Positions 18,983-37,500 are shown, numbered from the stretch's first letter. The stretch: DNA of 64,000 nucleotides from an uncultured Acidobacteriota bacterium (GCA_963796275.1 CAWCKY010000006.1:768001-832000); one strand, 5' to 3'. Made by a program: numbers and translations. Notes: generated by a model from the sequence alone, not told the origin.

Positions 18983-19052
18983 AGACGGATTAACAGGATA
19001 TTCTAGATTTACAGCTCTCCCTCAATCCTGATGAATCCTGATAATCCTGTCT
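18983..19052. repeat. Palindrome with 9-mer tandem arms (ACAGGAT / AATCCTG)
   Basis: agacggattaacaggatattctagatt ... aatcctgatgaatcctgataatcctgtct. Confidence 0.65.
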
Positions 19053-19072
19053 ATGTATATCGGAGGAAGACA

Positions 19073-20011
19073 ATGGCAAATTCATCGGCAACGGCCAGCA
19101 CACTGCTGGCTCTCTCGAATGAACTGGCCGACGCCGTCGCGCGGGCCGGCCAGTCGATCGTCGCAGTCAACGCGCGCCCTCGCATTCCGTCTAGCGGAGT
19201 TCACTGGCGGCAGGGTCTCATCGTAACTGCAGAACATACCGTTCAGCGTGATGAAGAGATCACACTCACTCTGCCGGACGGACAGACGGTGAAGCCGGAA
19301 TTGGTGGGCCGTGATTCGAGTACAGATTTGGCTGTGCTCAGACTCCCGAGCGCGAACATTGCCAATCAGCCAGTGGCGGAGGTCGGGGATGCGACTGATC
19401 TGAAGATCGGGCACCTGGCGCTCGCCGTTGCGCGTCCCGGTGAGCGCGGCCTGAGCGCGAGCCTGGGCGTGGTCAGCGCGCTCAGCGGATCCTGGCGCAC
19501 CTGGGGCGGTAGTCGCATCGATCAATTTATTCGTCTCGACCTGTCGATCTATCCCGGTTTCTCGGGAGGAGCGCTGGTAGACGCGCGCGGCCGCGTGGCC
19601 GGCATCATTACCTCGGGTCCGCGTAACTCCGTGATGGCGATCCCCGCCGCGACCGTCAACCGGGTGGTTGAGCAATTGTCGTCGAAGGGGCGCATCACGC
19701 GCGGCTTCCTCGGATTGGGTATGCAACCGGTTCGATTGCCCGATGCGCTCAAACAATCGCTCAATCTCGAAGGGCACGGGGGCGTCATCATTGTGGAGGT
19801 TAAACACGGCGGTCCGGCAGATCGGGCCGGCGCATTAATCGGCGATGTCCTGGTCGAACTCGATGGTCGAGCGATCGGCGAGCCGGGCGACGTGCAGGCT
19901 GCGCTCGATCCGGAGCAGGTGGGGAAGACCGTTAAGGCCAAATTTGTGCGCGCTGGCGCGCGGATCGAGTTATCTATCGTAGTGGGCGAGCGACCGCCCA
20001 GGGAGGAGTAG
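19073..20011 (+). CDS. S1C (HtrA-like) serine protease with PDZ domain, no signal peptide
   Basis: GGAGG RBS; TAEH, TDLAVL, PGFSGGAL catalytic motifs; GFLGL PDZ loop. Confidence 0.9.
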   Translation: MANSSATASTLLALSNELADAVARAGQSIVAVNARPRIPSSGVHWRQGLIVTAEHTVQRDEEITLTLPDGQTVKPELVGRDSSTDLAVLRLPSANIANQPVAEVGDATDLKIGHLALAVARPGERGLSASLGVVSALSGSWRTWGGSRIDQFIRLDLSIYPGFSGGALVDARGRVAGIITSGPRNSVMAIPAATVNRVVEQLSSKGRITRGFLGLGMQPVRLPDALKQSLNLEGHGGVIIVEVKHGGPADRAGALIGDVLVELDGRAIGEPGDVQAALDPEQVGKTVKAKFVRAGARIELSIVVGERPPREE

Positions 20012-20012
20012 A

Positions 20013-20909
20013 ATGTCTGTGGTGGAATCATTGATCGCAGGGACCAACTCCTTATTCGCCGAAGAGTCCGCAGCTCTGGCCGAGCGATTGCGACGCTCTA
20101 CGGTGCAGGTGAGAGATGGCTATCGTGGAGGCGGCTCGGGCATTATCTGGCGCCCCGACGGTCTCATCGTTACAAACGCCCACGTCGTGCGGGGCCGTGG
20201 CGCGCACGTCGAACTTTCAGATGGCCGAGCGTTCGACTCCGTCGTAGTCGCGCGGGACACAAGGCGCGATCTCGCATCCTTGAAGATTCAAGCTGATAAC
20301 CTGCCTGCGGCGGAGATCGGCAATTCCGATGGCCTGCGCGCAGGCGACCTCGTTTTTGCGATGGGCAACCCACTGGGCATTCCAGGCGCGCTGACGGCTG
20401 GAATTATGCAAGCGCATAGTCTCGTCGATGGCCGCCGCGGGCCCCAATGGATTCAAGCGGATGTGCGAATTGCGCCCGGCAACTCGGGCGGCCCGCTGGC
20501 TGATGCGCGAGGGCGCGTCATCGGCGTCAACAGTATGATCGTCAACGGTCTCGCCCTGGCTGTACCGAGCAATGCGGTCGAGCGGTTCCTGCTACGGCGG
20601 CATGAGAAGGCCTATCTTGGCATCACATTTCAACCTGTCCGTATCCCAGGCCGGGGACAATCGGGTCAGGAGCATAACGGATTGCTGGTTTTAAAAGTCG
20701 AGGCCGACAGTCCGGCGGATGAAGCGGGTTTGATGCTTGGTGATGTTTTACACGGAGCAAATGGCAGGGAGCTGGATGATCCCGCCGATTTGGCCGATGC
20801 GCTGGCTGATGTCACCTCGGATCGGACACTGCGCCTCGTTCTCACGCGCGGCGGCAGACAGGTCCATTGTGATGTAACTGTGCGCGCTATTATGGCGGAG
20901 GCCGCGTGA
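20013..20909 (+). CDS. S1C (HtrA-like) serine protease with PDZ domain, no signal peptide
   Basis: GSG, TNAHVV, RDLA, PGNSGGPL; AYLGI PDZ loop. Confidence 0.92.
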   Translation: MSVVESLIAGTNSLFAEESAALAERLRRSTVQVRDGYRGGGSGIIWRPDGLIVTNAHVVRGRGAHVELSDGRAFDSVVVARDTRRDLASLKIQADNLPAAEIGNSDGLRAGDLVFAMGNPLGIPGALTAGIMQAHSLVDGRRGPQWIQADVRIAPGNSGGPLADARGRVIGVNSMIVNGLALAVPSNAVERFLLRRHEKAYLGITFQPVRIPGRGQSGQEHNGLLVLKVEADSPADEAGLMLGDVLHGANGRELDDPADLADALADVTSDRTLRLVLTRGGRQVHCDVTVRAIMAEAA

Positions 20910-21550
20910 TTCGTGTCCTGATAGCAGCCAACGCCCTGCTCGTACGAGCCGGGTTGGAGGCGCTGCTCAAAGAGAGCACAGGGTCGGAGGTCGTAGGGAG
21001 TATTCCCTCTGCGCAGCTCGCGCGCCAAATCATTGACCTGAGGCCGGATGTAGTGGTGCTGGAATGGGAGCGTCACGACGAAGGATTCTCGCCATCGTCG
21101 ATAGCTTTGGGGGTTTTCGGCGACGAGCCGCGCAGGCCTGAGTTCGTCCTGCTGACCGATGAATCTCACGCCCCCTGGGTATTTAATGCCTTACGGGCGG
21201 GTGTGCGCGCTGTCCTGCCGCGCGACGCCACGACGGAAGAGCTGGAGGCGGCAATTATTGCGGCCGCTGCCGGTCTTGTAACGATGCATCCGGATACGGC
21301 CGACTCGCTGCTCAACAGCGCGCCCTCTCCCGCGCACACGCTCACAGCCACGCAATCCCTCACGCCGCGGGAGGTCGAGGTGCTGCGAATGCTGGCCGAA
21401 GGCCTGGGCAACAAAGAGATCGCGTTGCAGCTCGGCATTTCCGAACACACGGTCAAATTTCACGTCGGCTCGATCTTCACCAAGCTCGATGCGACGAGCC
21501 GCACAGAAGCGGTGATGACCGGTGTCAGGTTGGGCTTGATTATTCTTTGA
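20906..21550 (+). CDS. NarL/LuxR-type regulator with atypical receiver domain
   Basis: LTPREVEVL..LAEGLGNKEIA..LGISEHTVKFHV HTH; GTGA overlap with upstream gene. Confidence 0.9.
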   Translation: MIRVLIAANALLVRAGLEALLKESTGSEVVGSIPSAQLARQIIDLRPDVVVLEWERHDEGFSPSSIALGVFGDEPRRPEFVLLTDESHAPWVFNALRAGVRAVLPRDATTEELEAAIIAAAAGLVTMHPDTADSLLNSAPSPAHTLTATQSLTPREVEVLRMLAEGLGNKEIALQLGISEHTVKFHVGSIFTKLDATSRTEAVMTGVRLGLIIL

Positions 21551-21639: not shown

Positions 21640-22512
21640 CTATGTCGAATAGATCGGATTGGACAAGAGAAAACTGATGGCGGCGACGCGAGCCGGATCG
21701 GGCTCTTCATCTGGGATGGCGGCCATTATGGCATCGCATCTGGATTTTATTCCATCGCGGAATTCCGGATGAGTGAAGATATAGAGGTCGTTCCGTAAAA
21801 TGCCTTCCAAAACTCTCTCTCCGACTTTCATCGGATCCATATAGACAGAGGAGACTGAGTGCACCTGGCGCATCTTGTCCGTCTCGGCATACCCCGTGTT
21901 CGAGAGATGAGTCGGACGCGTCAGGCCGCTCTCGGCGATGTTTGTCTGAACGGGGCCCGGGCAAAGGACTGATACGCCGATATTCTCCGCGACCAGTTCC
22001 GTTCGTAACGCCTCCGACAGACCGACGACAGCGAACTTCGCGGTAATATATAAACCAGCCCCGAGTGTCGGAAGGAAGCCGGACATCGACGAGGTGGTGA
22101 CGATGTGTCCGCCCTCGCCATGCGCGAGAATGCGAGGGAGGAAAGTCTGGACGCCGTTGATCACGCCTCCGAGATTGACGTTCATGACCCAGTCCCAATC
22201 GTCGTAAGTCGCGAGCTTCATCGGCCCTCCGAGCCCGATTCCCGCGTTGTTGCACAGCACGTGGACCTTACCGAAGACGCTCTCGGTCTCGTCGGCCGCG
22301 CGATACATCGCCTCGCGGTCAGAGACGTCGAGTTCTATGGCATGAACCGCGCCCGTCCCATTGAACGAAGCCATCGCCTCATCCAGGTGGTCGCGCCGGA
22401 TGTCGGCGATCACTACCTTGATGCCCTCGCGGACGAAGACCCTCGCCATAGCAAGGCCGATGCCGCTGGCCCCGCCGGTAATAAATGCGACTTTGTCTTT
22501 CACGTCTTTCAT
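21640..22512 (-). CDS. Short-chain dehydrogenase/reductase (LigD/LigO-like subgroup)
   Basis: TGGASGIG, CNNAG, YITAK; VVIADIRRDHLD, TYDDWDWVMNVNLGGVING. Confidence 0.9.
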   Translation of the reverse strand: MKDVKDKVAFITGGASGIGLAMARVFVREGIKVVIADIRRDHLDEAMASFNGTGAVHAIELDVSDREAMYRAADETESVFGKVHVLCNNAGIGLGGPMKLATYDDWDWVMNVNLGGVINGVQTFLPRILAHGEGGHIVTTSSMSGFLPTLGAGLYITAKFAVVGLSEALRTELVAENIGVSVLCPGPVQTNIAESGLTRPTHLSNTGYAETDKMRQVHSVSSVYMDPMKVGERVLEGILRNDLYIFTHPEFRDGIKSRCDAIMAAIPDEEPDPARVAAISFLLSNPIYST

Positions 22513-22555
22513 CGATTTCTCCACTCATATGCCCATATGGTCTTTGAGAATTAAA

Positions 22556-22803
22556 TGAAGACTGTGCAAATAAAAGTTAATTGGAATCAGCATTTTCGGA
22601 CCTGAGCGCCAGAGGCGCGGGATGTTTATAGTATTCGATCACCAAAGTCTCACGAGCTCCGGAGGAGCGACATGTAGGCATTCATATGTCGCTCCTCCGG
22701 AGCTCAGGTTATGGTTAAGATCGTGAGCTATAGACATTACGCGCCCCCGGCGCTGAGACGCGAGACTATTGATTCTGTTGGATTTTAATTTGCACATGCT
22801 TCA
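22556..22803. repeat. Nested palindromic element (REPIN core 22605-22754 inside AT-rich outer arms)
   Basis: Core GAGCTCCGGAGGAGCGACAT / ATGTCGCTCCTCCGGAGCTC; ATGTTTATAG / CTATAGACAT; outer TGAAG..TGTGCAAATAAAA / TTTTAATTTGCACA..CTTCA. Confidence 0.85.
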
Positions 22804-22863
22804 ATTAAATGTAACAGTTCCGGCCCAATCCACTGACAACACTTGGTGCATCACTTCCTGCTC

Positions 22864-23086
22864 TTTACCCCGAAGGGGTTATTGAAGGTAGCCAGGGTTG
22901 GAGTGCAGCGGAAACCCTGGTGGATATGTAATATGGATCCGCATCCTGAAGGGATGCGAGAGCAGTCAGATGTGATAACGATCGATTTCTCGCATCCCTT
23001 CAGGATGCGAAACTATTGGGGACGGTTCCAGGGGTTTCCGCTGCGCTCCAACCCCTGGCTACCTTCAATAACCCCTTCGGGGTAAA
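22864..23086. repeat. REPIN-like long inverted repeat
   Basis: TTTACCCCGAAGGGGTTATTGAAGGTAGCCAGGG..GCATCCTGAAGGGATGCGAGA / TCTCGCATCCCTTCAGGATGC..CCCTGGCTACCTTCAATAACCCCTTCGGGGTAAA. Confidence 0.9.
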
Positions 23087-23185
23087 AGCTTATATTTCAA
23101 TCCCCGAGCATCACCATTTTATGAGATTGATTGCGATCCATTTGTGATATTTATTTTCAAAGACCATATGGCATATGTGCTTGAT

Positions 23186-24583
23186 TCAAGCCCATTCTCT
23201 CGATTCCGCTACGCTGCGGCCGTATGGCTTCATGCCGAGCCAGATGACGAGCGTGCCCAGCGGACCCAGTAAGAGACCGGTTAAAGAGAGCGAAAGCCCG
23301 ATTTGACTCTCGGACTGGAAGACATAATCCGTAAAGACCGCCACAATGGTCGGCCCTATTCCGACTCCGATCACGTTGAAGACGAACAGGAAGAGAGCCG
23401 TGATCTGCCCGCGCATCTGATTGGGCGTAATGATTTGAAGCGCGGCATTGAGCGGGGCTGCGGTACACGCCAGCCAAAAGAGGCTGAATGTCGATACGGC
23501 GATGGCCAGATAAGCGTTCGGCATGAACGGGAACATTATCCCAAACGGCAGCGCCACCAGCTTGGCCAGAAAAACTACGCGCAGGTTCGCGTCGTCGCGT
23601 CCAGCTTTGGCGAAGCGCTCGGCGAGTATGCTTCCGAGCAGCGCTCCGATCGGCAAAACGGCGATGATAATCAGTCCCTGGATCAGCCCGTATTCTTTAG
23701 GCGTCCAACCGAAAGTCCGCATGTAAAAGGCGGGAGCCCAACTGGCGCCGCCGATGGACATGACGATTTGAATGCCCATCCCAATGAATATCGGTGCGAA
23801 GGTAGCTCTGTTCTTGCCTAGGAAAGCGAACACGTCTCTGATCGGAATAGGCTTTGTTGAATCATTCGTGTTAGCGCTGATACGCCCTCTCCTCTTAGGC
23901 TCGCGAACCGTAGCCAGCAGAGCGGCCACGATCAGTCCGGGTAGTCCGACGACGACGAACGTCAGTTGCCAGCCACGCATTGTCGCGCCGATCAGAGGGA
24001 GAGTTACCGGAGGCAAGTTTAAAAACATTTGCGTGATAGCGCCGCCGATGATCAGAGCCAGGCCGGTTCCGGCATAGAATCCGAAGTTGAGAAATGCGAT
24101 AGCTCTCGGCAGTTTTTCTCTGGGAAAAAGATCTGCGAGCATCGAATAAGTCGCCGGCCCGCTGCACGCTTCACCAGACCCGACACCAACTCGGCAAATA
24201 AAGAGCTGCCAGAAGCTCTGAGCCAGGCCGCACAACGCGGTCATGAAACTCCAGATCGCGACTCCGATGCCGAGGATGGCTCGCCGGCTCTTATAATCCG
24301 CCATCCTCGCGATGGGAAGACCGAGAATCACGTAGAAGCAGGAGAACGCGAACCCCATCACCAGACTCATCTGGAAATCGCTCAGTCCCAGGTCGCGTTT
24401 GATCGGCTCGACGAGCAGGGAGACGATCCCGCGGTCGAGAAAGTTGATCATGAGCGCGAGGGCGAAAACGAAAACCGCATACCAGGCCCGGGCCGGGCTG
24501 GGCCAGGGTTCGCTCGTTGCGTCTCGCGCAATTCTCTCATCAGCCAAAGAATCGGCGGAGATTTTAGTCGCTTCAGTGCTCAT
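23186..24583 (-). CDS. MFS transporter (spinster-like)
   Basis: NFLDR..SLLVEPIKRDLGLSD, ARMADYKSRR motif A, about 12 hydrophobic segments, PNQMRG. Confidence 0.92.
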   Translation of the reverse strand: MSTEATKISADSLADERIARDATSEPWPSPARAWYAVFVFALALMINFLDRGIVSLLVEPIKRDLGLSDFQMSLVMGFAFSCFYVILGLPIARMADYKSRRAILGIGVAIWSFMTALCGLAQSFWQLFICRVGVGSGEACSGPATYSMLADLFPREKLPRAIAFLNFGFYAGTGLALIIGGAITQMFLNLPPVTLPLIGATMRGWQLTFVVVGLPGLIVAALLATVREPKRRGRISANTNDSTKPIPIRDVFAFLGKNRATFAPIFIGMGIQIVMSIGGASWAPAFYMRTFGWTPKEYGLIQGLIIIAVLPIGALLGSILAERFAKAGRDDANLRVVFLAKLVALPFGIMFPFMPNAYLAIAVSTFSLFWLACTAAPLNAALQIITPNQMRGQITALFLFVFNVIGVGIGPTIVAVFTDYVFQSESQIGLSLSLTGLLLGPLGTLVIWLGMKPYGRSVAESREWA

Positions 24584-24623
24584 CCAATACTCCTTCGGAC
24601 ATTCGCTGCTTCGTGGTTGATCT

Positions 24624-25523
24624 TCATTCCAAGACCAGCTGGCTTGCCCTGGCTTTGGCGTTCATTTGGCGGCGGCCCTCTTCGATCGCCAATCGCCTGG
24701 GATCGGCTTCGCCTTCGGGCAGAGCCGCCAGGATTTCGTCGAAGAGCGCCTTCAACTCTTCCTTGAATTCGGGGTGGGTGAAGATATAGAGGTCATTGCG
24801 TCGGATGCCGCGCAGAACTTTCTCGCCCATCTCTTCTGGCTCCATTCCGAATTGATGTATCTCCGGCAGCCTGGCCATAAACTCCTGATTGGCGGGCCCG
24901 ATGTCGGTGGAGAACTGCGGCGGGCGGATCTTGTCGCTCTCGTATATGGCGGACTTGACAAGCCCCGGACATACCACGGAAACGCCGATGCCATAAGGCA
25001 TCAGGCTCCAGCGCAGCGATTCGCTCAGCCCGCGCACGGCGAACTTCGCGGTCGTATAAACGCCCGCACCGGGCCCGGTGATGAACGAAGCCATCGAGGC
25101 CGTGTTCACGATCTGGCCCCCTTCGCCGTGTTTCTTGATCCGGGGGACGAAGGTCCGGATGCCGTTGATCACTCCGCCGAGATTGACGCCGAGCAACCAG
25201 TCCCAATCTTCATACGTGCATTCATCCATCGGCGCGAAAAAATTGACGCCGGCGTTATTGCAGACTACGTGAACCTTGCCGAACACCCGTTCCGCCTCGT
25301 CCGCCGCGCGATTGAAGGCCGCGCGATCGGTCACGTCCAACCGGATCGGATGCGCGCTTCGGCCCGTCTCACCGAAATGAGCCATCGTGCGATCGAGATG
25401 ATCCTGCCGGATGTCGGCGATAACTACCTTCATGCCGGCGTCATGAAAAACCTTGGCCATACCGAATCCGACGCCGCTGCCGCCGCCGGTGATAAAAGCA
25501 ACTTTTCCCTGTACGTCTTTCAT
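24624..25523 (-). CDS. Short-chain dehydrogenase/reductase (LigD/LigO-like subgroup)
   Basis: MKDVQGKVAFITGGGSGVG, MKVVIADIRQDHLD, CNNAG, YTTAK. Confidence 0.9.
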   Translation of the reverse strand: MKDVQGKVAFITGGGSGVGFGMAKVFHDAGMKVVIADIRQDHLDRTMAHFGETGRSAHPIRLDVTDRAAFNRAADEAERVFGKVHVVCNNAGVNFFAPMDECTYEDWDWLLGVNLGGVINGIRTFVPRIKKHGEGGQIVNTASMASFITGPGAGVYTTAKFAVRGLSESLRWSLMPYGIGVSVVCPGLVKSAIYESDKIRPPQFSTDIGPANQEFMARLPEIHQFGMEPEEMGEKVLRGIRRNDLYIFTHPEFKEELKALFDEILAALPEGEADPRRLAIEEGRRQMNAKARASQLVLE

Positions 25524-25566
25524 AGCGGACCTTTCAATCAAGACTGCCCTTCTACGCGTCCCGACA

Positions 25567-27354
25567 TTAGAGCGGACACCCGCAGTCTTCATCACTCTCC
25601 TTATTTTCCGGAAGCGGGCAGCCGCAGTCTTCCTCGCTCTCTATTTTTTCGGGTGCAGGGAAGAAGTAATGCCGAACATCGTAGCTCGGACGGATCGCAG
25701 TCTGCGGCCGCCATTTGTCAATGGATGCGGATGTCGTATGAGCGAGATCGGTCGTCAGCCAGAGCGGGTTCGTTTCGCCGCCGACGATGACGACATTGAT
25801 GTTTTCCGGCTCGTTCCATGGCGCGATCAACGTGTCATCCGGGACTTTAGCCCAGGTGGCGTACGGTTCGACTCCCCGCCGCGCGAGCGGAACCATAAGG
25901 TTGCTCACGACATCAGCTTCCCAATATTGTTTCGCGGGTATCTTGACGTTCTCCGAGAGCCACCGGGCCAGAGATTCTTTCGTCTCGAAGCCGTGATTTT
26001 CTTTAAGACCTTTCGCCACCAGCGGGTCCATGACCAGCGTGGCCATTGAACGAAGCGCCTGAAACGCTTTCAGCATAATTGCGGTCTCTTCGTGCGCGCC
26101 GCGGCGGTTGGGGGCGCCCATGGCGTTGATGAAGCTCCAACCTCTGAAGAGACTGACGACGCTCTCTTCGGGGCGGAAGCCCTTTTGGACGTGGAACGAT
26201 CCCCAGACGCTCTTCTCTTCATTCTCGGCGACGCACATATTGTTATAGTTGAGATTGTTCCCCTGTGAACCGAGGAAAGTCTCTCCTACTTTGGTGTTCC
26301 CGAGCGTCAGGGTCATCAAAGTCCAGGCCCTGCCGATCGCCGAATTGGCCAGATTCACTGGACTCAGCGCGCCGACCCCGCAATTCATACCTATTTCATG
26401 CCGGATCGGGCCGTTGACGACCATCATTCTGCCGAATGAAGTCGTCGAACTCGGGATGGCGGGTTCACCGGTCGAGGCGATCGCCAGTAACACCGGAAGA
26501 TGCTCCGGTCTGGCGCCCGCCATTACCGCATTGATGGCGACCTTCTCGACGGTGTATTGCGTCCCCCGCTCTTTCTTGGTCGTGATGGTCATCTCGCCGA
26601 TAACCTCATCGGGAGGATGGCCTGTTCCCGTTAGCATTTCAGCCACTTTCTCTTCCGTGGGAAGAATGATCGGCAGTCCATCCGTCCAGCCGTTCTCATA
26701 AAAGAGGCGGCGAAGATTGTCTTCAGTATCCCGTTCCAACAGTCGCGGCTGTTCTGAGAAGGTCGAACTTAATGAAACCTGTTCAAAATTCTCCTGGGTG
26801 AGCGTGTCGATCACGCGCCGCATAATCGGAACGCCGGACACCGGGTCGTCCCCTTCGACATATCGGCGGAGGGTTGAGATGGGCATTCCCACGAGCGGAT
26901 GCGGAGTGAAGGTGAACGGCAGGACCATCCCGTGTATGCGCTGCTCCTTCGCCAGAAAATCGGCGAACCTCATCGTCGCCATCGGAGCTGTGGGGATTCC
27001 GTAATCTTTTTCCAGTCTTCTGCAGTATTCGGCGACCGCCGAAGAGCAGCCGTCTCAGCCGCCGACGCCGAAGATCACGGCATCGCACCTCCGCTTCAAT
27101 TCAGTCCAAAACTCCGGTTCATCCGTAAACATGTTTCCCGGCTTCCTCATAACTTCGGTCTTCACCGAAGGCATCCGTCTGGAAAACCATCCCTTCATCT
27201 CCTCCAGAAATTCATAAGCCCCGCCAAATCCGACATCCACCAGATAAACAGTTTTGCCTTCGATCTCACCAAGTCGGGGAGCCAATGGGGCCGGCTTTGT
27301 CGTATGAGTCGGCCGGCCCACCGGGTTCAAAACCGTATAAAGTGTTTTGGTCAT
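25567..27354 (-). CDS. UGSC-family selenoprotein (UxxC), fused to a conserved C-terminal domain, 595 aa; Sec at TGA 27057-27055
   Basis: ATG 27354 with GAGGAG RBS; ...DAVIFGVGG-TGA-DGCSSAVAEYCRRLEKDYGIPTAP joins in frame (25 codons) to ORF 25567..26982 (PHP, GWTDGLPIILPT, TVEKVAINAVMAG, VNGPIR). SECIS-like hairpin follows the TGA. Confidence 0.88.
27020..27054 (-). promoter_or_regulatory. Bacterial SECIS-like hairpin
   Basis: UGA-GACGG-CUGC-UC-UUCGGC-[GGUC]-GCCGAA-UACU-GCAG: 6-bp upper stem, G-first loop 17 nt after UGA, 4-bp lower stem. Confidence 0.75.
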
Positions 27355-27440
27355 TGAGTTCTCCTCAGCGGCACAGCGCCGTGCGCGTGCAACCAAACAG
27401 GTGATTGCAGCGCGCGGTGCCGATCGCGGTATTGATCGGA

Positions 27441-30400
27441 TCAAAAGATGAACTTCAACCCGAACTGAATCTGCCGGGACGAATTGACCGTGTTGAGAAA
27501 TCGCCCGACGTTCGGATTCGGATTCGGCGTCGGGGCAGCGGCCGTTCCAGTGAAAAGAGTAAATTGTGAAGGTGTCTGGAAATTCGGATGATTGGTGGCG
27601 TTGAAAACCTCCGTCCGGAACTGTATGTCCAATTTCTCTGAGATCTTCGTATTCTTCAACATAGCGAGATCGACATTGAAGAAGCCCGGCCCCCTGATCG
27701 AGTTCCTCGGCACATTGCCCAGCATGCCGAGAGGCTGCAAGACATAGCAGCTCGGATCGAACCACTGATTCGGATCGCCTATCAGCCGATCAGAATTACA
27801 ACCCGGGGCGCCGGAATAGTTCGGACGATCTCCGACGATACCGCCCAACCTCGACCGGGCGGGGAAAGTGAAGCCTGTCTGGATATTGATCGGAGTACCG
27901 TCGTAGGTGCGCAGGATTCCGCTCAATTGCCATCCTTCGATCAACTTGTTTCCGCGGAAGGGTAATGGATAGACGGCGTTGGCGCTGAAAGTGTGGGGGA
28001 TATCGAACGAGCAGAGTCCGCGATCGTAGGCTTGATTCAGCGCGTATGTTATCGGAAATGCCCCTTGTTCGAGACCGGAGCTGACCGAGCCGTCGTCGAT
28101 ACACTTCGACCACGTGTAGGCCGCCCCAAGGACAAATCCCTGACTGAACTGCCGATTGAGGCTCGTCTGCATAGAATGGTAAGTCGAGTGGCTGCTCGGC
28201 GCGACGTTGTTCAGTGAGCCGAAGTTGGGATTGGTCGCCATCCCCGAAAAAGGATTGCCCGGCGTGCCAGGCGAGCCTATGCCGCCAAGAGTCCCCATGG
28301 GCAGGTTCTGGTCGCGAATGGAGAACAGATGGACGCCACTCGAGCCGACATAGCCTACTGATGCGATGAAGCTGCCGGGAAGCTCACGCTGGATCGTCAG
28401 GTTGTATTGCATCGCATAAGGCGCGGTGTCTGTCGAATAGTCGAGCCCCGCGAACGCGGTATAGTTCGCGGCGAAGACGGATCCCGGCGGCAGCCCAATG
28501 CCATAGGGGTTTGAAAGAAGCAGTGGCGGAGCCGTAGGATTGCCCGTGGCTAGCCGCAGATTGACCAGAATGTTGGCGCCAGATGGCGGAGCCAGATAAA
28601 AGGCTGGCGCGTATGTGCGAGGGGCTACTGGCTCGTGGAAGATTCCGAAGCCGGCGCGTATCGATGTCTTGTGATCCTTGAACGGATCCCAGGCCAGGCC
28701 GATTCGCGGATCGAGATTCCAGAGGTTCGGATTTTTCGCCAGCACGCGATCGACTGTTGTGAATCCAGTCGATGTCAAGGGATCGAGGATCACGTTGAGA
28801 GGAATCCCTCCGGCTCCCTTGGCGTTCGTCGCGAACGCATATCGCAAACCCAGATTGAGCGTCAGTCGCGGCGTCACCTTCCAATCGTCCTGGATGTAGG
28901 GGAAGATGTCGATTTCGCGGAAATAGCGGGCAGTGGAGAAATCCGGTGACGGCGCCGCCATTCCCAACATATTGAGCGGCGTTCCATTCAGGAAATTCTC
29001 GAGCGTGCCAAAGGTGAAATTTCCGCCGACATAGGCCGGTGCGGAGAGGTTGGTTTGAACCCGCGTCACCGTAGCGCCTATCTTGAGGCTGTGTGATCCG
29101 CTGTTCAATATAAGGTCGTCTCCCACAGTGAACTTGTTCTGTACGAGGACAAACGGCACCGTGCCGCTGGCGCCGATCGGTGTGACCGGCCCGAGAGCCC
29201 CGGTGGCGAAGATCGCGCCGTCCTGCCGCCCTCCGCCGATTATCTGGAGCGCAGGCGTAGAGCCGTCGGTGCGGCCGCGCTCGTTGGTTCGCGTGAAGCT
29301 GAATCGAATCGAGTTGACCACCTTTGGCGAAAAGATCCGTTTCTCTTCGATGGTGAAAAACTGGTTTTTCGTATTGTCAACTTCCGGCCATAAAGCGAGT
29401 TCAGAGAGCGGAAAAGGGATGCGACGGAACGCCCTGTTAACAATATACCGCCCGAAGAGAGAATCCTTCTGCGAGAACGCGTAATCCATACGTCCGAGAA
29501 CATAGTCCTCGTTGATGATCTCATCGGCGACGGATGTATATAGCCCCACGCCGGTTCGACGGCCTTGAGCATCGAGCAGGTCGGCGCCTATCGGCAATCC
29601 CGGCGCGGCGGAGGCGTTTGGAAACGGATAGAGGTCCAATATCTTCGCTATCATCGCCTTGTCGGGATTCGGATCATTGGGATTCGGGACGCCTAAGTTT
29701 ATGTCGGGAGTGGAAGCCGTGCAGGCGGCAGTACTGTTGAGCGCGGCGCAAGGCAATATTCCCTGATGTACGTTCGCGTTCGGAACGAACAGGCGGCCGG
29801 TCTGGCCCTGCGACTGGCGAAGGCCTTCGTAAGTTCCGAAGAAGAAGAGCTTGTCTTGCTTGATCGGTCCTCCGAGCGCGCCTCCGAACTGATTCCTGCG
29901 AAACGTGGGTATGTCCGCCACCGGATCGTCGAAGTAATTCTTCGCGTCGAATACGCTGTTGCGCAGAAATTCGAACGCCGAACCGTGCAGCGCGTTCGAG
30001 CCGGATCTACTCACAGCGTTGACGACTGCGCCGGTTCCTCCATATTCGGCGCTGTAGGTGTTGGTCAATACGCGGAACTCCAGAATCGCCTCGACTCCGA
30101 GAGAATTGCCGGTGACCGACGATCCCGCCCCGTGATTGAAAAATCCCTGCAACTCAGTGTTGTCGAGCAGGAACGATTGTCCGACCGGCCTCGAACCGGA
30201 GACCGAATAGTTTGTTCCCTGACCGTAGAAAGTGGCCGATCCGCCTCCCCCGGCCGGGCTTTGGGGGACGGCCTGCACACCGGGCGACAGCGTCATCAGC
30301 GCCGTAAAATTTCGCCCATTCAGCGGTAGATCGCGCATCTGGGTTGGGGTGATGAGGGTAGAGACCGAGGCGGTACGTACCTCCACTTGCGCTGCCTCGC

Positions 30401-30794
30401 CTACCACGGTAACCGTCTCAGTCGTCGCGCCGGGTGACAGCGTCAGATCCGCGACAGGCTGGCTGCCGACCGTCAGAGTGATCCCCGTGCGGACTACCGT
30501 CTGGAACCCGGTGGCCGAAGCCCGAACTTCATATTCGCCGACGGGCAGATTCGGTATGTTGTATCGCCCCTGTGAATCTGTTATGGCAGATTGTGTGATT
30601 GAGGTTCCGAGGTTCTTCACCTCGATCTTCGCGCCGACCAACACCGCCCCTGAACTATCCGCAACTGTGCCTGAGATGGTCGCCGTTCTGACCTGCGCCT
30701 CGATACGAATCACGCCCACTATGACGATCAGAATAAAGGCGTATATCGAAGCGTTGCAGAACAGCTTCAACTTCCACATTTCCATTCTTGGCAT
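27441..30794 (-). CDS. TonB-dependent receptor, Oar-like, with carboxypeptidase-regulatory N-domain
   Basis: Signal peptide, ISGTVADSSGAV, LPLNGRNF, FLRNSVFDAKNYF, YIQDDWKV..LTLNLGLRY, RQIQFGLKFIF. Start placed after AAGGAG RBS (alternative 30809). Confidence 0.93.
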   Translation of the reverse strand: MPRMEMWKLKLFCNASIYAFILIVIVGVIRIEAQVRTATISGTVADSSGAVLVGAKIEVKNLGTSITQSAITDSQGRYNIPNLPVGEYEVRASATGFQTVVRTGITLTVGSQPVADLTLSPGATTETVTVVGEAAQVEVRTASVSTLITPTQMRDLPLNGRNFTALMTLSPGVQAVPQSPAGGGGSATFYGQGTNYSVSGSRPVGQSFLLDNTELQGFFNHGAGSSVTGNSLGVEAILEFRVLTNTYSAEYGGTGAVVNAVSRSGSNALHGSAFEFLRNSVFDAKNYFDDPVADIPTFRRNQFGGALGGPIKQDKLFFFGTYEGLRQSQGQTGRLFVPNANVHQGILPCAALNSTAACTASTPDINLGVPNPNDPNPDKAMIAKILDLYPFPNASAAPGLPIGADLLDAQGRRTGVGLYTSVADEIINEDYVLGRMDYAFSQKDSLFGRYIVNRAFRRIPFPLSELALWPEVDNTKNQFFTIEEKRIFSPKVVNSIRFSFTRTNERGRTDGSTPALQIIGGGRQDGAIFATGALGPVTPIGASGTVPFVLVQNKFTVGDDLILNSGSHSLKIGATVTRVQTNLSAPAYVGGNFTFGTLENFLNGTPLNMLGMAAPSPDFSTARYFREIDIFPYIQDDWKVTPRLTLNLGLRYAFATNAKGAGGIPLNVILDPLTSTGFTTVDRVLAKNPNLWNLDPRIGLAWDPFKDHKTSIRAGFGIFHEPVAPRTYAPAFYLAPPSGANILVNLRLATGNPTAPPLLLSNPYGIGLPPGSVFAANYTAFAGLDYSTDTAPYAMQYNLTIQRELPGSFIASVGYVGSSGVHLFSIRDQNLPMGTLGGIGSPGTPGNPFSGMATNPNFGSLNNVAPSSHSTYHSMQTSLNRQFSQGFVLGAAYTWSKCIDDGSVSSGLEQGAFPITYALNQAYDRGLCSFDIPHTFSANAVYPLPFRGNKLIEGWQLSGILRTYDGTPINIQTGFTFPARSRLGGIVGDRPNYSGAPGCNSDRLIGDPNQWFDPSCYVLQPLGMLGNVPRNSIRGPGFFNVDLAMLKNTKISEKLDIQFRTEVFNATNHPNFQTPSQFTLFTGTAAAPTPNPNPNVGRFLNTVNSSRQIQFGLKFIF

Positions 30795-31220
30795 TCTTTC
30801 TCCTTTCATTATTCATCGCCTGCGTTAAGTAAGGAATCGATAGCGATTAATCCGCATGCGCCGCATTTGGTGGATGGCGCAACGGACTGCAAGAACGGAG
30901 ATCAATTTAGACTTCAGAGAAATGGGCTCTGATATTTATGAAAGCCGAATACGAGAGCCTATATATGCCCTTGTCCTTCTGCTGTCAACTCTGTTATATC
31001 AGTTTTGAAAGATTACATTCAGATTCGCGACGATTCAGAGGGTTCAGGCGATTCATATGACCGATGCACAAAAATGGGAGACAGTATCCGACCCCCAAAA
31101 GGTCTCCCAAAGGGAGAATTTCCGGTTCTGAATCATGCACACACCTGTGATAGAGTAGCTCTTCAGTTTTATCCTCCTTCAAATTCAATAACTTATTAAC
31201 CAAGATTGAAGGGAGGATCT

Positions 31221-32237
31221 ATGCATCGAACAGAAACCTTACTCTTCTCTTTCGTCGTTCTCCTTCTCCTCTCCATCATTTATGCGCCTTCATTCGGGCA
31301 GTCGACATCCGATCAACGGGTTTTAAAGGTACGAACCGAGCTGGTGAACGTTGATGTTCTGGCCAAGCAAAAAAAGACCGGGCGCATCGTCAATAATTTG
31401 GATAAGGATGATTTCACCGTCCTCGAAGATGGCATCAAGCAGACGATTTCGCATTTCGGTCAGGAGCGGCTCCCGCTCTCGATAATCCTGCTCGTAGACC
31501 GCGCCGGATGCATCAACGCCTTCAATGATCGGATTCGGGGGGCGACGATCGATGCGTTCAGCCGGCTCAAGAGCGAGGACGAGGTCGCGATCATGACCTT
31601 CTCCAGCAAAGTGAGCCTTGCTCAGCCGTTCACCCGCGATCGCCAGTTGATCGCCGACCAGATCATGGCCGTCGAGAGGCAGCATCGGAGCGAGCAACAT
31701 TATTTCAACGCCGGCATATACGAAGCCTCGACCTATATGAGCAAGGCGGCCAATCCCCTGGGCAGGCGGGCGATCATCGTGCTGACCAGTCTCGAGGCGA
31801 GCATCGATTTTTCCAAGATATCGGAGAAGGAAGCGCTCGAAGCCTTGCTTGAATCAGGCGCTGTCGTCTCGGGCGTTCTCGTGAAGACGCTCGGCGCGCG
31901 CCTGGAGCAGGGGGTACGCGGGAAGCCGACCAGCATCCTGCGCCACGTCGGGTTGCGATCTGGCAGTCTGAAGATGTTCGTCGAGGAGACAGGAGGTGAG
32001 TTGATCAGCGCCCAGCCCGAGCGAATAAACGAAACGCTCGTTGAGATGGTCGATCATCTCGCGGTCAGTTATTCGCTCGCATACCTACCGACCAATTCGG
32101 TTCGCGACGGAAGACGACGGCGCATTAAGGTGCAGTTATCGCCGGATGTCGAGAAACGCGAAGGAAAGACGGTGTTGATAACTCGGCGCAGTTACATTAT
32201 GCCGAAGGACGTGAATACAACGGAGAAGAGTTTTTAG
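31221..32237 (+). CDS. Acidobacterial VWA-domain protein, secreted
   Basis: GGAGG RBS; LKVRTELVNVDV, DFTVLEDGIKQTI, PLSIILLVD, ETGG, YSLAY.P....DG..RRIKV. Confidence 0.88.
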   Translation: MHRTETLLFSFVVLLLLSIIYAPSFGQSTSDQRVLKVRTELVNVDVLAKQKKTGRIVNNLDKDDFTVLEDGIKQTISHFGQERLPLSIILLVDRAGCINAFNDRIRGATIDAFSRLKSEDEVAIMTFSSKVSLAQPFTRDRQLIADQIMAVERQHRSEQHYFNAGIYEASTYMSKAANPLGRRAIIVLTSLEASIDFSKISEKEALEALLESGAVVSGVLVKTLGARLEQGVRGKPTSILRHVGLRSGSLKMFVEETGGELISAQPERINETLVEMVDHLAVSYSLAYLPTNSVRDGRRRRIKVQLSPDVEKREGKTVLITRRSYIMPKDVNTTEKSF

Positions 32238-32313
32238 TTTTTAGTTTTTAGTTTTCAGTTGAACTGTCTCGATCAGCAACTGAAAACTAAAAACTGAAAA
32301 CTGAAAACTCTTC
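32225..32313. repeat. Heptamer-armed palindrome between convergent genes (possible bidirectional terminator)
   Basis: gaagagtttttagtttttagtttttagttttcagttg ... caactgaaaactaaaaactgaaaactgaaaactcttc. Confidence 0.85.
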
Positions 32314-34185
32314 TTAATAGCTCAACCCAAAACCATATTTGAACAGCGGATCATAATCGCGATCGCCGACGTTGACCGGCATCTGCGCTTTCGATCTCGG
32401 CCAACTGAAGGAGAGTTTCCCCGTGGGTTTGTAATCGCCGAAGAGTACATCAGCGACTCCGTGACCTTCAGTCCCGGGCAACCACGCCGCAACGAAAGCA
32501 TCGCTCTTATCGAGCACCTTCTCTATATGCAGCGGGCGGCCTGAGAGCAAGATCACCACCACCGGGACGCCCGTCTTCTTCATATTCTCGATGGCCGCAA
32601 TGTCATCTTGCGCGAGCGAGAGTTCATCCCGGTCGCCGAACATTTCGGCATACGGCGTTTCGCCCACCACGACGACACCGACATCCGCGCCGGCAGCGCC
32701 GGTTCCATCGGCAGAGAACGTGACGTTAGCGTCGTTTGCGACGGTCTTCCGGATGGCCTGCAGTATCGTTGTTCCACCGGTCGTAACGGCGCCGCTCTTT
32801 CCCTGCCAGGTGATGGTCCAGCCTCCGGATTGATTACCAATGTCATCCGCGTTCTTGCCGGCCACGTGGATACGCGCGAGGCTCTTTGAGAGGGGCAGGG
32901 TATTCTTCTCGTTCTTGAGCAGCACCAGCGACTGCCGCACGCATTCGCGCGCCACCTCGCGGTGCTCGGCGGACCCGAACTTGCTATGCAGGCTTCTGTC
33001 GGCCAGTTGCGATCTGTCTTTATTCATTAATCCCATCGCAAACTTGACCCTTAATATCCGTTTTACGGCATCATCGATCCGCGACATCGGCACCTTACCT
33101 TCATTGACCAGCTCTTTCAGCGTGTCAAAGAACTCCGGATATTTGTTGGGAACCATTACCATATCCATCCCCGCATTGATCGATTGCTGGATGTCGCTCC
33201 GGTAGTCTCCCGGTAACTCATCGATCGCGTTATAGTCCGAGATCAGGAATCCTTCGAAACCCAATTCCCCTTTCAGTATTTCGGTCAACAGCCGTTTGCT
33301 GCCAGAGCACTTCACCCCATTCCAACTGTTGTATGAGGGCATTATGGTGCCGACACCGGCTTTGATCGTGGTGATGTAGCCCTGCATATGGAGCTCTTTC
33401 AGCTCGGCTTCGGTCAACCGCGTGTCGCCGCGATCAAGCGGCCACCGGCCTCCCGATTTCTCATCCTTGGGCGACCCTGTGCCGTAGGTGGTGCCTCCAT
33501 CCCCGGCGAAATGCTTGGCACACGCGAGGATGCTCAATGGGTCGCTCAGGTCATTCCCCTGGAGCCCACGTACCGCGGATTCTCCGAGCGTGCTGGCCAG
33601 CTCGGGGGTTTCGCCGAACCCCTCGTATGTTCTCCCCCACCTGTCGTCGCGCGGGACTGTGACGCATGGTGCGAAGTTCCAGTTGATTCCGGTCGCCCGC
33701 ACTTCCAGAGCGGTTATGCGGGAGGCCTTCTCGACCAGGGCGGGATTCTGCATGCTGCCGAGTCCGATGTTATGCGGGAAGATGACGGCTCCCATAACAT
33801 TACTGTGCCCGTGCACGGCATCGACGCCGTAAAGCAGAGGTATGGCGAGACGCGTCTTGAGCGCCTTCGACTGCTGCTCATCATACATGTCGGTCCAGTC
33901 CTTGAGACCATTTCCCGTCTTCGGATCCGAGTTTCCTCCACAAAAGAGCGAACCGAGGAAGTATTTCTCGATGTCGTCGATGCTCTTGAGTCCGCTCTGC
34001 TCTGCCTGGGTCATCTGACCGATCTTCTCTTCCAGGGTCATCTGAGCTAACAGTTGCAGCGCTTTGTCGTCGTAATGAGTCAGGGGCTTCACCGTTCCGG
34101 GGTGTGCCGATATGGACGATATTTCTGCAGTGGAACACGCTGCACCTATCAGGGTGACGATGATTAAGGTGAATAGTTTTTTCAT
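32314..34185 (-). CDS. Glycoside hydrolase family 3 beta-glucosidase, probable lipoprotein
   Basis: MKKLF..GAAC signal; [31 protein letters not shown] nucleophile, GETPYAE, WLPGTEG. Confidence 0.93.
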
Positions 34186-34268
34186 TTCATCCCTCGTTAT
34201 CTGGTAGTTTGTGGTGATGTTGCGGCCGCCATTATAAAGCGACTCGAGATCGCAGGGGGGAAAAAATA

Positions 34269-34419
34269 TAGCGGGTTTCAGTTGAATGGATGCCGGAACC
34301 CGGCCACGGAGTCTTAGAGACAAAGAGTGGTTAATGGGAGGATATGGCTGACTGACAAACTCATTTTTTGTTGCTTCTCCGTGACCATGTTCCGAAATCC
34401 ACTCAACTGAAACCCGCTA
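34269..34419. mobile_element. MITE-like element, about 41-bp terminal inverted repeats, TA on both sides
   Basis: TA-GCGGGTTTCAGTTGAATGGATGCCGGAACCCGGCCACGGAG ... CTCCGTGACCATGTTCCGAAATCCACTCAACTGAAACCCGC-TA. Confidence 0.7.
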
Positions 34420-34572: not shown

Positions 34573-37500
34573 TCAGAAGGTAAGCTTGAGCGCCATCTGG
34601 ATATTGCGCGGATCGCGGGCGGTGTTGATGAACCCGCTCTGACCACGCGTCTCCAGAGATACCGCCTGGCTTTGGTCGGGGACGTTGATCCCGTTAACTA
34701 CCCCGAACCACTGAGTGTTATTAAATATGTTGAAGAACTCAGCGCGGTACTGCAGGTTGACCCGCTCAGTAAATTTGAAGGTTTTAAAAAGGGAGAAATC
34801 GAAGTTCGTGAAACCCGGTCCACGAAAGGCATTTCTTCCCGTATTTCCGAGCATACCGTTTGCCGGACGGCCGAATGCGAAAGCATTGAACCACTCCCTG
34901 CTTGCATCGTCCTTCACGTAGACATCGCCTCCCAGATAATCAGCGCGAACCCCGTCTCCGAGAGTTCCCGGATTTCCGTTAGAGGTAACCGTGAATGGCA
35001 ACCCGCTCCAGATGCGAGTCACGCCCGATATCGTCCAGCCATCAAACGCCGCCCGGGCAATACTGTTATTGCCGAGTACATTGCCGAATCTGGGGAGATT
35101 GTAGATGTAGTCGAAGGTCAGGACATGCGTGCGGTCAAAGCCGGCAACGGCGCGTTCGCGACCTCGATCGAGGAAATAACCGATCGTACTGGCGTCGGTA
35201 TCCGTCTCGGTGATCGCCTTACTCCATGTGTAATTGGCGTTGAACGTGAAGTTACTGCCGAAGCGGCGGCTGACGCGCGTTTGCAGCCCGTTGTAGTTGC
35301 TGTTCGCACCGGTCTCCACCAGTGTGATGTCATTGAAACCTCTGAACGGGCGAAGCCCATCGACATCAGCGCCTGGATTGAGCTGCGCGCCCAGAAGTAA
35401 CTGGTTGATATTGCGCTGATACATCAGATGTCGCCCCATGGTCCCAATGTAAGCGATATCGATGCCGATCTGCCCTGGCAGCTCATGCTGTACCCCGAGG
35501 CTCCACGAATAGATACTCGGGATATTGCCTTCCGGATCGATGGCGATGAGGTTGGCGGGAAAACTCGATGCCCCGGAGATAAGGCCCGGACCAAAGTCGC
35601 TCAGCCTCCCGGGACCAAGAGACGGAGTAAGGGTCACAGGCGGATTGCCCAGACCGTCGAAGTAGTTATTGTTTTGCCGGATACGCTCGTAGAAGATTCC
35701 GAAGCCGCCGCGGATTGCGGTCCTGCCGTCGCCGAAGACGTCATAGGCGAAACCGAGGCGTGGCGAAAAATTGTTCTTACGGCTCTTGACGCCGCCTCTC
35801 GAGATTCCATCCCCCTCCTCTACCAGCCCATTAAGCGGGTTGCCTGAACCGGCTATGATGGCGCCGGTTGAGGCAATCTCCACCGCTTGCGCCGGATCGT
35901 AGCGATCGGCCAGAAAGTAATTCATGAGAAGCTGGCCATGCGTGGAGGTCGGTCCCATATACGCCCACCTCAAACCATATTCGAGCGTGAAGCGCGGCGA
36001 CACCTTCCAACTGTCCTGCCCGTAGAGCTCGAGACCATAGAACTTGAAAGAGCCGAAGAACTTTCCATTGCTCTGAGATGCCGACGTATAGTTTCCGAGA
36101 AGCAGGTTGGCAAACGTATTGCCGGTGTCCAGCGGGTTGGTGCTGCTTGCACCGAAATCCAGATTGACCTCATCGGTCCACGCGGGTTGTTGACCGTTGC
36201 GATTCATATTGAAGAAAGCGCCGGTCTTGACGGTGTGCCTGCCGCGCGAGATCGTCACGTTGTCCGTCCACGCGAATTGCCTCGCTTCGCTCTCCCAATT
36301 GTTCGCGAAACTGAAGAAATTACACGCGCCGACGCCGCAACTGAAGGCCGGGAATTTGTTTCGTAAGTTTGACCCATCCGGAAACAGCTCAGGGAAGGTG
36401 AAACCGAGCTGATCACGATCGTATGTCGCCGGATCGACGCCGGGCCTGATGTCGACGACCTGCGTATAGGTGATTGTAGCCGAAGATGAATTCGTTGGTG
36501 ATGGTCGGAGAGACCGACGAGATCAAGTTCCACGACCAGCTTGACCCAGGTTTCTTGCGGAACTGCGGCAGCACCGGATAGGAATTATCCGAGAACATCC
36601 CTAATCCCTGATTTTCGTCCTGCGAATCGTCAACCCAGCGGAAGAAGAAATTGTTCTTTGAGTTGATGTTGTAATCGAAACGGACTACTTCCTGGCGTTT
36701 TTTCAACGAATAGGAGTCTTGTGTGAAGACCCGTACCAGTTCGGGATTGCCAGGAACTCCCGCTGCGCCGGCGCGGTTGAGACTGCCTATGACTCCGAGA
36801 AATGCGTCGGCATTGCTGTTCCATTCGCTGCGCGGAACAATGTTATTAGGGTATGGCGTTCCCCCAATGATATTACCCCCTTCTCGTCTAACCGTTCCGG
36901 GTCTGAAGACAGTTCCGACAAAACACGGGCGTGAGCCAAGTCCGTCGCCATAGTCACATGATGAATTCGCAAGTGTGTCTGTCCTCAGCAACCGACTAAA
37001 ATCCCCATTCAAAATATCGGGATGCGCGACGTCGACGAAGGGATTGCCGTTCGGCCGCGTGCCGCGAGTCCACTCCATATTGAAGAAGAAGAAGGCCTTG
37101 GGATCGCTCATCGGAGAGAATTTGCCGAGCGGGATCGGGCCGCTGATATTTCCGCCGAACTGATTTAGACGAAGTTTTTGTTTGGTGTCGTTGAGCGGAT
37201 TACGCGCATCGAGCGCGTCATTACGCAGGAATTCATACGCCGTCCCGTGGAACTGCCTCCCGCCGCTCCTGGTTGTCGCCGAGATGAGAACACCGGGATT
37301 CCGCCCGTACTCAGCATTGAAGCTGCTGCTCTGAACCTTGAACTCGCCGATGGCATCCAGGCTCATCTGTGTGAACTGCCCGTCATTGGCTCCCACATCG
37401 GTGTTGATCGTACCGTCGAGATAGACGTTGTTCATCGAATCGCGCATGCCGTTGACATTGAACATCCCCGTCGAATTGAACCCGAGGTTGAAATCCGACT

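Follow-up and report, generated by a model that had tools for sequence, protein, structure and literature searches.

A cluster of five genes from an uncultured soil bacterium of the Acidobacteriota may be one operon for the uptake and conversion of beta-aryl-ether-type lignin fragments, or of closely similar alpha-substituted secondary alcohols, without glutathione, in which a selenoprotein, here called FUS, would replace the glutathione transferases (GSTs); this reading has a little under an even chance of being right. The cluster lies in a stretch of 64,000 nucleotides (GCA_963796275.1 CAWCKY010000006.1:768001-832000), here called the window and numbered from its first letter, and the host genome comprises 9.46 Mb in 7 contigs and is 94.7% complete. 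The five genes, all on the minus strand and tightly spaced, encode a TonB-type receptor, FUS, a first short-chain dehydrogenase/reductase (SDR1), a transporter of the major facilitator superfamily (MFS) and a second such dehydrogenase (SDR2). The features, with the evidence for each, are:

27441..30809, minus strand: TonB-dependent outer-membrane receptor, 1122 amino acids, N-terminal CarboxypepD_reg (Pfam PF25183, PF13620)
25567..27354, minus strand: FUS selenoprotein, 595 amino acids, UGSC domain followed by an unnamed domain of ~360 amino acids and a Cys-rich tail (read-through translation)
24624..25523, minus strand: SDR1, predicted Lig-type NAD-dependent secondary-alcohol dehydrogenase (PDB phmmer, motifs)
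23186..24583, minus strand: MFS transporter, 465 amino acids (PF07690)
22525..23185, no strand: gap with two palindromic elements resembling miniature inverted-repeat transposable elements (MITEs) (inverted repeats, genome copies)
21640..22524 (GTG start) or to 22512 (ATG start), minus strand: SDR2, Lig-type SDR of a second lineage (PDB phmmer, tree)

FUS and LigF-type GSTs beside related SDR pairs

A scan of soil metagenome contigs starting from SDR1 identified 79 loci, only 19 of which have 2.5 kb on both sides. A LigF-like GST stands beside the SDR gene or genes in seven of the 79 (L068, L072, L123, L124, L129, L138 and L140) and FUS in four (one partial), while none has both. Among the 16 loci with at least two such SDR genes a GST was found in six, FUS in one and an MFS gene in ten. 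The closest non-FUS relative of the window operon is L068, in which genes for an aldo-keto reductase, an MFS transporter (51% identical to that of the window), an SDR2-like protein (68%), an SDR1-like protein (75%) and a GST follow each other co-oriented and tightly spaced. The best solved relative of this GST is 4XT0 at 2e-61, with the next GST at 4e-17, and the GSTs that accompany the SDR pairs in L123 and L138 match LigF at 1e-56 and 2e-57; 4XT0 is identified as LigF in PMC4777856. No LigF-like match at E<=1e-5 was found in any FUS locus or in the window. The LigF-type loci additionally carry an Amidohydro_2 protein and an aldehyde dehydrogenase. In L123, L124 and L129 the SDR pair is accompanied by both of these, by two MFS genes and by three paralogous LigF-like GSTs, which share about 55, 43 and 32% identity with that of L068.

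In a tree of 45 SDRs there were two deep lineages (support 97), with SDR1 and SDR2 in different ones, and most pairs draw one member from each. FUS-linked and LigF-linked SDRs interleave in both lineages, and the window SDR2 is sister to a LigF-linked clade with support of 96. MFS homologues with 38-55% identity to the window transporter likewise adjoin SDR pairs in metagenome loci. As judged by these relationships, the SDR pair and the MFS transporter are the same functional cassette as in the LigF-type loci, with FUS in the place of the GST.

A first-pass annotation of the window had remarked that no GST is encoded there, and this holds beyond the window: in the host genome, at its level of completeness, there were no matches to GST_N and none to GshA or GshB, which is not proof of their absence, and the single GST_N_3 match reached 24 bits in a frame of 82 amino acids. 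Likewise, GST_N and GshB were each found in none of five other genomes with SDR-FUS modules (0/5 and 0/5), the completeness of four of these being unknown. As FUS stands in the place of the GST in hosts with no detected glutathione system, functional replacement would be the simplest explanation. The same annotation had proposed that the selenoprotein supplies the nucleophilic or reductive step of a glutathione-independent route, a proposal that gains from the occurrence of orthologous SDR pairs with LigF or with FUS and never with both; its chemical part is still argued by analogy, there being no clue from fold or family for the large domain of FUS.

The two dehydrogenases

Both SDR1 and SDR2 match PF00106 adh_short with 164-169 bits, and both have the TGxxxGxG cofactor motif and the YxxxK catalytic motif of classical SDRs, as TGGGSGVG and YTTAK in SDR1, together with VVIADIR and NNAG, and as TGGASGIG and YITAK in SDR2. 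The start of SDR1 was taken as the Met of MKDVQGK, the longest open reading frame (ORF) extending to 25595. The resemblance to the Sphingobium dehydrogenases LigD and LigO that had been noticed on first reading is borne out by phmmer searches of the PDB, in which three of the four best solved relatives of each protein are LigO, LigD and LigL: for SDR1, 3IOY (4e-94), LigO 4YA6 (2e-83), LigD 4Y98 (2e-76) and LigL 4YAE (2e-65), and for SDR2, LigO (1.8e-77), LigD (5e-73), 3IOY (8e-70) and LigL (1.6e-69). These four relatives score 224-318 bits over ~270-285 aligned residues, covering the full length including the C-terminal extension, compared with 152-174 bits for the next solved relative (3TJR). 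The structures 4YA6, 4Y98 and 4YAE are described as C-alpha-dehydrogenases of Sphingobium sp. SYK-6 in PMC4858972. Both proteins match NCBIfam NF004843 (PRK06194) with 233-254 bits, below its cut-off of 308.

SDR2 is 58% identical to SDR1 and, with their positions in the tree, the two would represent two lineages of Lig-type C-alpha-dehydrogenases that are old and complementary. SDR1 shares 72-75% identity with SDRs whose names assign them to metagenome-assembled genomes of Rhizomicrobium sp., Alphaproteobacteria (P0287, P0288, P0321 and P0334), suggesting transfer of the SDR cassette between phyla.

Linkage of SDR and FUS genes across genomes

A Lig-type SDR adjoins FUS in eight of 44 FUS loci, these being the window, six of 28 loci from genomes (L002 and L009 in Blastocatellia, L007 in Desulfobacteraceae, L011 and L016 in Dehalococcoidales and L013 in Chloroflexia) and one (L049) of 15 more loci from Acidobacteriota. 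Four genomes from Chloroflexota, Thermodesulfobacteriota and Bacillota together have 23 Lig-type SDR genes, of which 12 adjoin FUS, commonly in the arrangements SDR-SDR-FUS or FUS-FUS-SDR-SDR. SDR-FUS modules recur in four phyla. Of 301 Acidobacteriota genomes, just three have SDR1-like genes at E<=1e-50; two of these come from a single genus, and all of them are included in the six genomes with a close Sec-type FUS (Sec, selenocysteine). The survey of FUS neighbourhoods, which the first-pass annotation had called for, showed co-occurrence with the SDRs in four phyla and no LigF-like matches in FUS loci, with the reservation that most FUS loci have no Lig-type SDR neighbour.

In a quick tree of FUS, from which nine rows were left out (fragments L021, L024, L028, L029 and L016b; near-duplicates L004, L006, L019 and L027), SDR adjacency is scattered within the UDGC+UPGC clade, in 8 of 23 rows with at least four changes. 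An SDR of a different type adjoins FUS in L012, L018, L019, L050 and L052, as well as in L022, where it lies on the opposite strand. Other than SDRs, the neighbours of FUS are variable, with no other conserved partner.

The USSC clade has a conserved neighbourhood of its own (L018, 7989-12960; L050, 8034-11438), consisting of a methyltransferase, the different SDR type and FUS, with a class-III aminotransferase in L018. The 2.0-Mb Dehalococcoidales genome that holds L011 and L016 has 18 FUS matches, most with one in-frame TGA, an expansion of paralogues that recalls substrate-specific reductase families.

FUS as a selenoprotein

Read through its single in-frame TGA, FUS is a protein of 595 amino acids with the motif GG-U100-D-G-C103. 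Among family members read from genome loci, TGA stands at the U100 column in 45 of 46 and U-x-x-C is kept in 44 of 46 (as UDGC, UPGC, USSC or UGSC), the latter as expected for a catalytic nucleophile, and coding conservation continues on both sides of the codon. The host genome has a tRNA-Sec (62.6 bits, cut-off 47) and SelB (336 bits, cut-off 242). On this conservation and decoding machinery FUS is evidently a genuine selenoprotein, in agreement with the first assignment of the UxxC protein. The further features within the gene are:

27055..27057, minus strand: TGA read as selenocysteine U100, motif GG-U-D-G-C103 (family conservation, Sec machinery)
27028..27043, minus strand: candidate selenocysteine insertion sequence (SECIS) hairpin, 6-bp stem and GGUC loop, starting 11 nt after UGA (minimum-free-energy fold)
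26863..27333, minus strand: UGSC domain, flavodoxin-like alpha/beta fold in the model (Pfam PF24696)
25687..26769, minus strand: unnamed conserved domain, residues 196-556 (no family match; model)
25570..25686, minus strand: predicted flexible C-terminal tail with two DCGCPL repeats (alignment)

No consensus pairs were found at the candidate SECIS by RNAalifold with 21 homologues. A second Sec, considered for family rows with two TGA codons, was rejected, the extra TGA being the true stop codon after ...DKWR. Many full-length homologues of 530-570 amino acids (P0123, P0173, P0183 and others) have neither Cys nor Sec at the motif; in these non-Sec branches the large domain presumably works without the U-x-x-C redox pair.

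Residues 9-165 of FUS match Pfam PF24696 UGSC with 71.6 bits (cut-off 25), while the match to NCBIfam NF041046, an equivalog for the short form of about 147 amino acids, is 55.6 bits and below its cut-off of 125. The full length of FUS is conserved in 28 genome loci. An AlphaFold2 model from an alignment of 68 rows has a predicted local distance difference test score (pLDDT) of 91.8 and a predicted template modelling score of 0.90. The model places U100 between a strand (92-98) and a helix (101-118), and residues 30-192 align by VIA-align with Z 8-10 to many flavodoxin-like, CheY-like and B12-binding-like domains; U100-x-x-C103 is thus predicted to be located where a helix begins, within a flavodoxin-like domain. 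FUS has no match to the GST families in Pfam (GST_N plus GST_C). Lacking a GST fold and having a flavodoxin-like Sec domain, FUS is not a member of the LigE, LigF or LigG families, and the claim is only that it would work like them.

Residues 196-556, folded alone, have a pLDDT of 93.7, and the residues that do not vary in this domain are D225, T233, S303, N337, R342, E377, D546 and W548. For this large domain no sequence match was found in Pfam (nothing relevant to E<=10), NCBIfam or PDB, a profile search of PDB sequences returned nothing below E 0.058, Foldseek against PDB gave no match at E<=0.001 with either the full model or the domain alone (best E 1.5e-3, template modelling score 0.2), and the best hit of a wide VIA-align search had a Z of only 5.4. 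The ESM Atlas yielded only the family's own clusters, and in multi-domain relatives Pfam detected no new partner domain except a Cu_amine_oxidN1 repeat in one protein of 1226 amino acids. The last 40 residues of FUS are disordered in the model (pLDDT 46-51). The tail motif is C-x-D-G-x-C-G-L-P in relatives (L003, L005, L011, L012, L014-L017 and L023), takes the form of the two DCGCPL repeats in the window and is absent from members ending ...DKWR; this Cys-rich tail may be electron-shuttling or metal-binding.

The family is large, with 6335 proteins at E<=0.001 among 8000 candidates scored; clustered at 50% identity, it comprises 4314 clusters at E<=0.001 and 352 at E<=1e-30. Most database entries lack the part before the TGA, as the Sec codon is taken for a stop in gene calling. 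The UGSC family has been catalogued since 2007/2008 (Zhang and Gladyshev) as abundant and with its function still listed as unknown (PMC2398784, PMC13188914, PMC9312934). A 'UGSC/Unknown_1' fusion was reported in 2008 (PMC2398784), and its 'Unknown_1' part may be the large domain of FUS.

Operon layout and surroundings

The first-pass annotation had described five co-oriented genes with gaps of 86, 43 and 40 bp and a last gap of about 670 bp, mostly palindromic. This layout stands, Pfam confirming the gene families and the coordinates giving intergenic distances of 86, 43, 40 and then 661 bp (673 bp if SDR2 begins at its ATG). Its cluster end at 30794 falls on a Met five codons inside the receptor ORF, which extends to 30809. 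Co-transcription of the five genes would be expected from their spacing, which is its sole basis; a scan of the operon for promoter and terminator consensus sequences gave no signal above shuffles.

The receptor matches PF25183 OMP_b-brl_4 with 617 bits over profile positions 1-838, PF13620 with 80.7 bits and PF00593 with 35.7 bits, and by Pfam has the 22-strand barrel domain and N-terminal extension of TonB-dependent receptors; a Plug domain is not among the Pfam matches listed for the operon's receptor copy. A homologue with 82.6% identity occupies the same position in L009. The transporter matches PF07690 MFS_1 with 146.7 bits, and the nearest subfamily model is that of the anion:cation symporters, TIGR00893, at 103.7 bits against a cut-off of 395.

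The 661-bp gap contains five inverted-repeat pairs and is made up of two palindromic elements, at about 22549-22809 and 22864-23086. The first has 16 other copies in the genome at 82-95% identity, across contigs, as well as many weaker copies (79 genome matches on both strands, self included), and the second has few. In relatives the spacing between the MFS and SDR2 genes is 66 bp (L002) and 16 bp between tblastn matches (L067). As these relatives have a short gap lacking the insertion, the 661-bp gap is best read as a late MITE-type event, in which two palindromic MITE-like elements were inserted secondarily into a compact operon.

The host genome has one FUS gene and only three SDR1-like matches at E<=1e-30, two of them within this cluster; to find the single FUS and two of the three SDR1-like genes within 6 kb of 9.46 Mb argues for clustering beyond chance.

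Upstream of the operon, a VWA-domain gene is divergent from it and a glycoside hydrolase of family 3 (GH3; 32314-34323, minus strand) lies between two receptor loci (31206-34323 overall); the GH3 enzyme may hint at glycosylated plant substrates. The second TonB-type receptor gene (34573-38005, minus strand) is split into ORFs at 36413-38005 and 34573-36258 in different frames, and a third frame is open across the junction; a frameshift or an assembly error is indicated. On the other side, the interval 19031-21550 holds genes for two HtrA-like Trypsin_2+PDZ proteases and for a LuxR/GerE-type regulator, convergent with SDR2. Elsewhere in the genome there are one LigB-type and one intradiol ring-cleavage dioxygenase.

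Proposed function and mechanism

In the proposed pathway the receptor and the MFS transporter would import the substrate and the two SDRs would oxidise its C-alpha alcohol to the ketone, one stereoisomer each. FUS would then do the job of LigE/F plus LigG without glutathione: the U100 selenolate would attack the beta carbon of the ketone with expulsion of the phenolate, and C103 would resolve the Se-C adduct to give a selenenyl-sulfide and the free ketone product, as LigG does with a second glutathione. A thiol system would re-reduce FUS, possibly through the Cys-rich tail. This chemistry, reductive cleavage of an alpha-aryloxy ketone by U100/C103, is assigned to FUS by analogy, an SN2 attack by the glutathione thiolate having been proposed for LigE/F in PMC4777856.

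More broadly, and as a tentative proposal, FUS may be a Sec-dependent, glutathione-independent beta-aryl-ether reductive lyase that unites the LigE/F and LigG steps in one U-x-x-C site, and the long-form UGSC family, with its thousands of clusters and its expansion in Dehalococcoidales and other anaerobes, a large and so far unrecognised class of Sec-dependent enzymes that reductively cleave C-X bonds in alpha-substituted ketones, including the missing lignin-ether route in glutathione-free or anoxic microbes.

Several observations weigh against the reading of the cluster as a beta-aryl-ether operon. The beta-etherases that are known are stereospecific, and the window has one FUS gene. A Lig-type SDR neighbour is lacking in 36 of the 44 FUS loci, so that the whole family is not tied to one substrate, and the SDR1-like gene of one of the three Acidobacteriota genomes (G290) is not adjacent to FUS. 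In the USSC clade FUS is accompanied by another type of SDR together with a methyltransferase and an aminotransferase, and in anaerobes the SDR-FUS module stands alone, with neither transporters nor aromatic-catabolism genes. The nearest model for the MFS transporter is of the organic-anion type. As neither the fold nor the family of the large domain could be recognised, there is no independent pointer to ether chemistry, and some full-length homologues have neither Sec nor Cys at the U-x-x-C motif. The candidate SECIS is without statistical support, its fold z-score of -0.09 being no better than shuffles. The genomes searched for glutathione genes include four (G301-G304) of unknown completeness, and the trees were built without the sequences of LigD/L/N/O and LigE/F themselves.

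Some of these points would fit with the same chemistry acting on other substrates, FUS being a Sec-dependent reductive lyase of general scope, whose C-X bond could be that of an ether, thioether, amine or halide, and the window substrate another plant- or soil-derived secondary alcohol, which we consider unlikely but well worth keeping in mind. FUS paralogues are many and diverse, with the 18 matches in the Dehalococcoidales genome and four per genome in three Acidobacteriota; the partners in the USSC clade, the modules in anaerobes that lack aromatic-catabolism genes and the GH3 glycosidase adjoining the operon are in keeping with this. However, the closest non-FUS relatives of the window SDR1, SDR2 and MFS transporter sit in a LigF operon, which ties this copy to beta-ether-type substrates more than to others.

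Less probable still is that FUS acts in the same pathway at another step, whether as a LigG-like lyase for an adduct with some other low-molecular-weight thiol, by reducing the ketone product or by racemising the beta carbon, with the etherase elsewhere or unknown. UxxC chemistry would suit adduct resolution as well as direct attack, and the LigF-type loci often have three GST paralogues for separate steps where the window has a single FUS. Yet the operon holds no candidate etherase and no GST_N was found in the genome, and the compact SDR-SDR-FUS modules contain no other enzyme.

It appears improbable that FUS has a general role in redox balance or stress, for instance as a peroxidase, as a disulfide reductase or in detoxifying reactive carbonyls or quinones, and stands beside the SDRs only by co-regulation. 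The UxxC selenoproteins are mostly thiol oxidoreductases, according to PMC2398784, and most FUS loci have variable, unrelated neighbours. However, a highly conserved extra domain of 360 amino acids and the expansion of paralogues would be unusual for a plain oxidoreductase, and neither the repeated tight coupling to one rare SDR subfamily nor the mutual exclusion with LigF would be expected of one. A chance neighbourhood with no functional link between FUS and the SDRs, for which the sole point is that most FUS genes have no SDR neighbours, is hardly credible in view of the clustering in the 9.46-Mb genome and is contradicted by the recurrence of the linkage in four phyla.

Novelty and significance

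The proposal of a new system on first reading is upheld in part, as the UGSC family had already been catalogued whereas the searchable literature yielded neither the SDR-FUS operon type nor the suggestion that a Sec enzyme could stand in for the beta-etherase GSTs. The component families themselves had been described before. Beta-aryl ethers make up 50-70% of lignin linkages, according to PMC4858972. The bacterial cleavage route described in the literature consulted depends on glutathione transferases, and the six genomes with SDR-FUS modules that were searched show no GST_N or glutathione synthetase. If the proposed function of FUS is correct, it would be a first function for one of the most abundant orphan selenoprotein families and a selenium-based way of breaking lignin's main bond. 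It would also explain the role of Lig-type dehydrogenases in Acidobacteriota, Chloroflexota, Desulfobacterota and Bacillota, point to a way in which lignin dimers could be turned over in soils and anoxic sediments and offer a cofactor-free biocatalyst, requiring no glutathione, for lignin valorisation.

Comparison with known systems

FUS shares with the UGSC family the PF24696 N-terminal domain and Sec in a UxxC motif. It differs in being a long fused form, with UDGC instead of UGSC and a score below the NF041046 cut-off, and its Sec domain is flavodoxin-like in the model whereas a thioredoxin-like fold was guessed for the family in 2008.

The glycine/sarcosine/betaine and D-proline reductases (GrdB/PrdB) reductively cleave, in a Sec-dependent manner, a carbon-heteroatom bond that neighbours a carbonyl, a cysteine serving for resolution, and their subunits are paralogous and substrate-specific. 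The architecture of FUS is different and no pyruvoyl or GrdA-type partner was seen. There was no match to PF07355 (GrdB/PrdB) for FUS at E<=0.001, nor for FUS with four relatives at E<=10, where the HMMER filters discard most matches above about E 0.1, and the list of fold matches for the N-terminal domain of FUS is filled by generic flavodoxin-like folds, so that the GrdB/PrdB fold family, which is not listed, is not thereby excluded.

In the epoxyalkane:coenzyme M pathway the R- and S-hydroxypropyl-coenzyme M dehydrogenases, which are stereo-complementary SDRs, make a ketone, and 2-ketopropyl-coenzyme M oxidoreductase/carboxylase, a flavoprotein disulfide reductase with a redox-active dithiol, reductively cleaves the thioether bond beta to it. 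Unlike this enzyme, FUS has no FAD/NAD-binding family match.

The nearest comparison is with the beta-aryl ether pathway of Sphingobium sp. SYK-6 (LigD/L/N/O, LigE/F and LigG). In contrast to that pathway, the operon has no GST, and searches of the genome gave neither GST_N nor genes for glutathione synthesis; the place of the GST is taken by a selenoprotein that is not homologous to it and has a flavodoxin-like domain, an outer-membrane receptor is included in the operon and the host is an acidobacterium rather than a sphingomonad. In common are the paired Lig-type NAD-dependent SDRs of two lineages, whose orthologous SDR/MFS cassettes elsewhere carry a LigF-type GST, and the two systems would follow the same logic of oxidation at C-alpha, attack of a thiolate-type nucleophile on C-beta and reductive resolution of the adduct.

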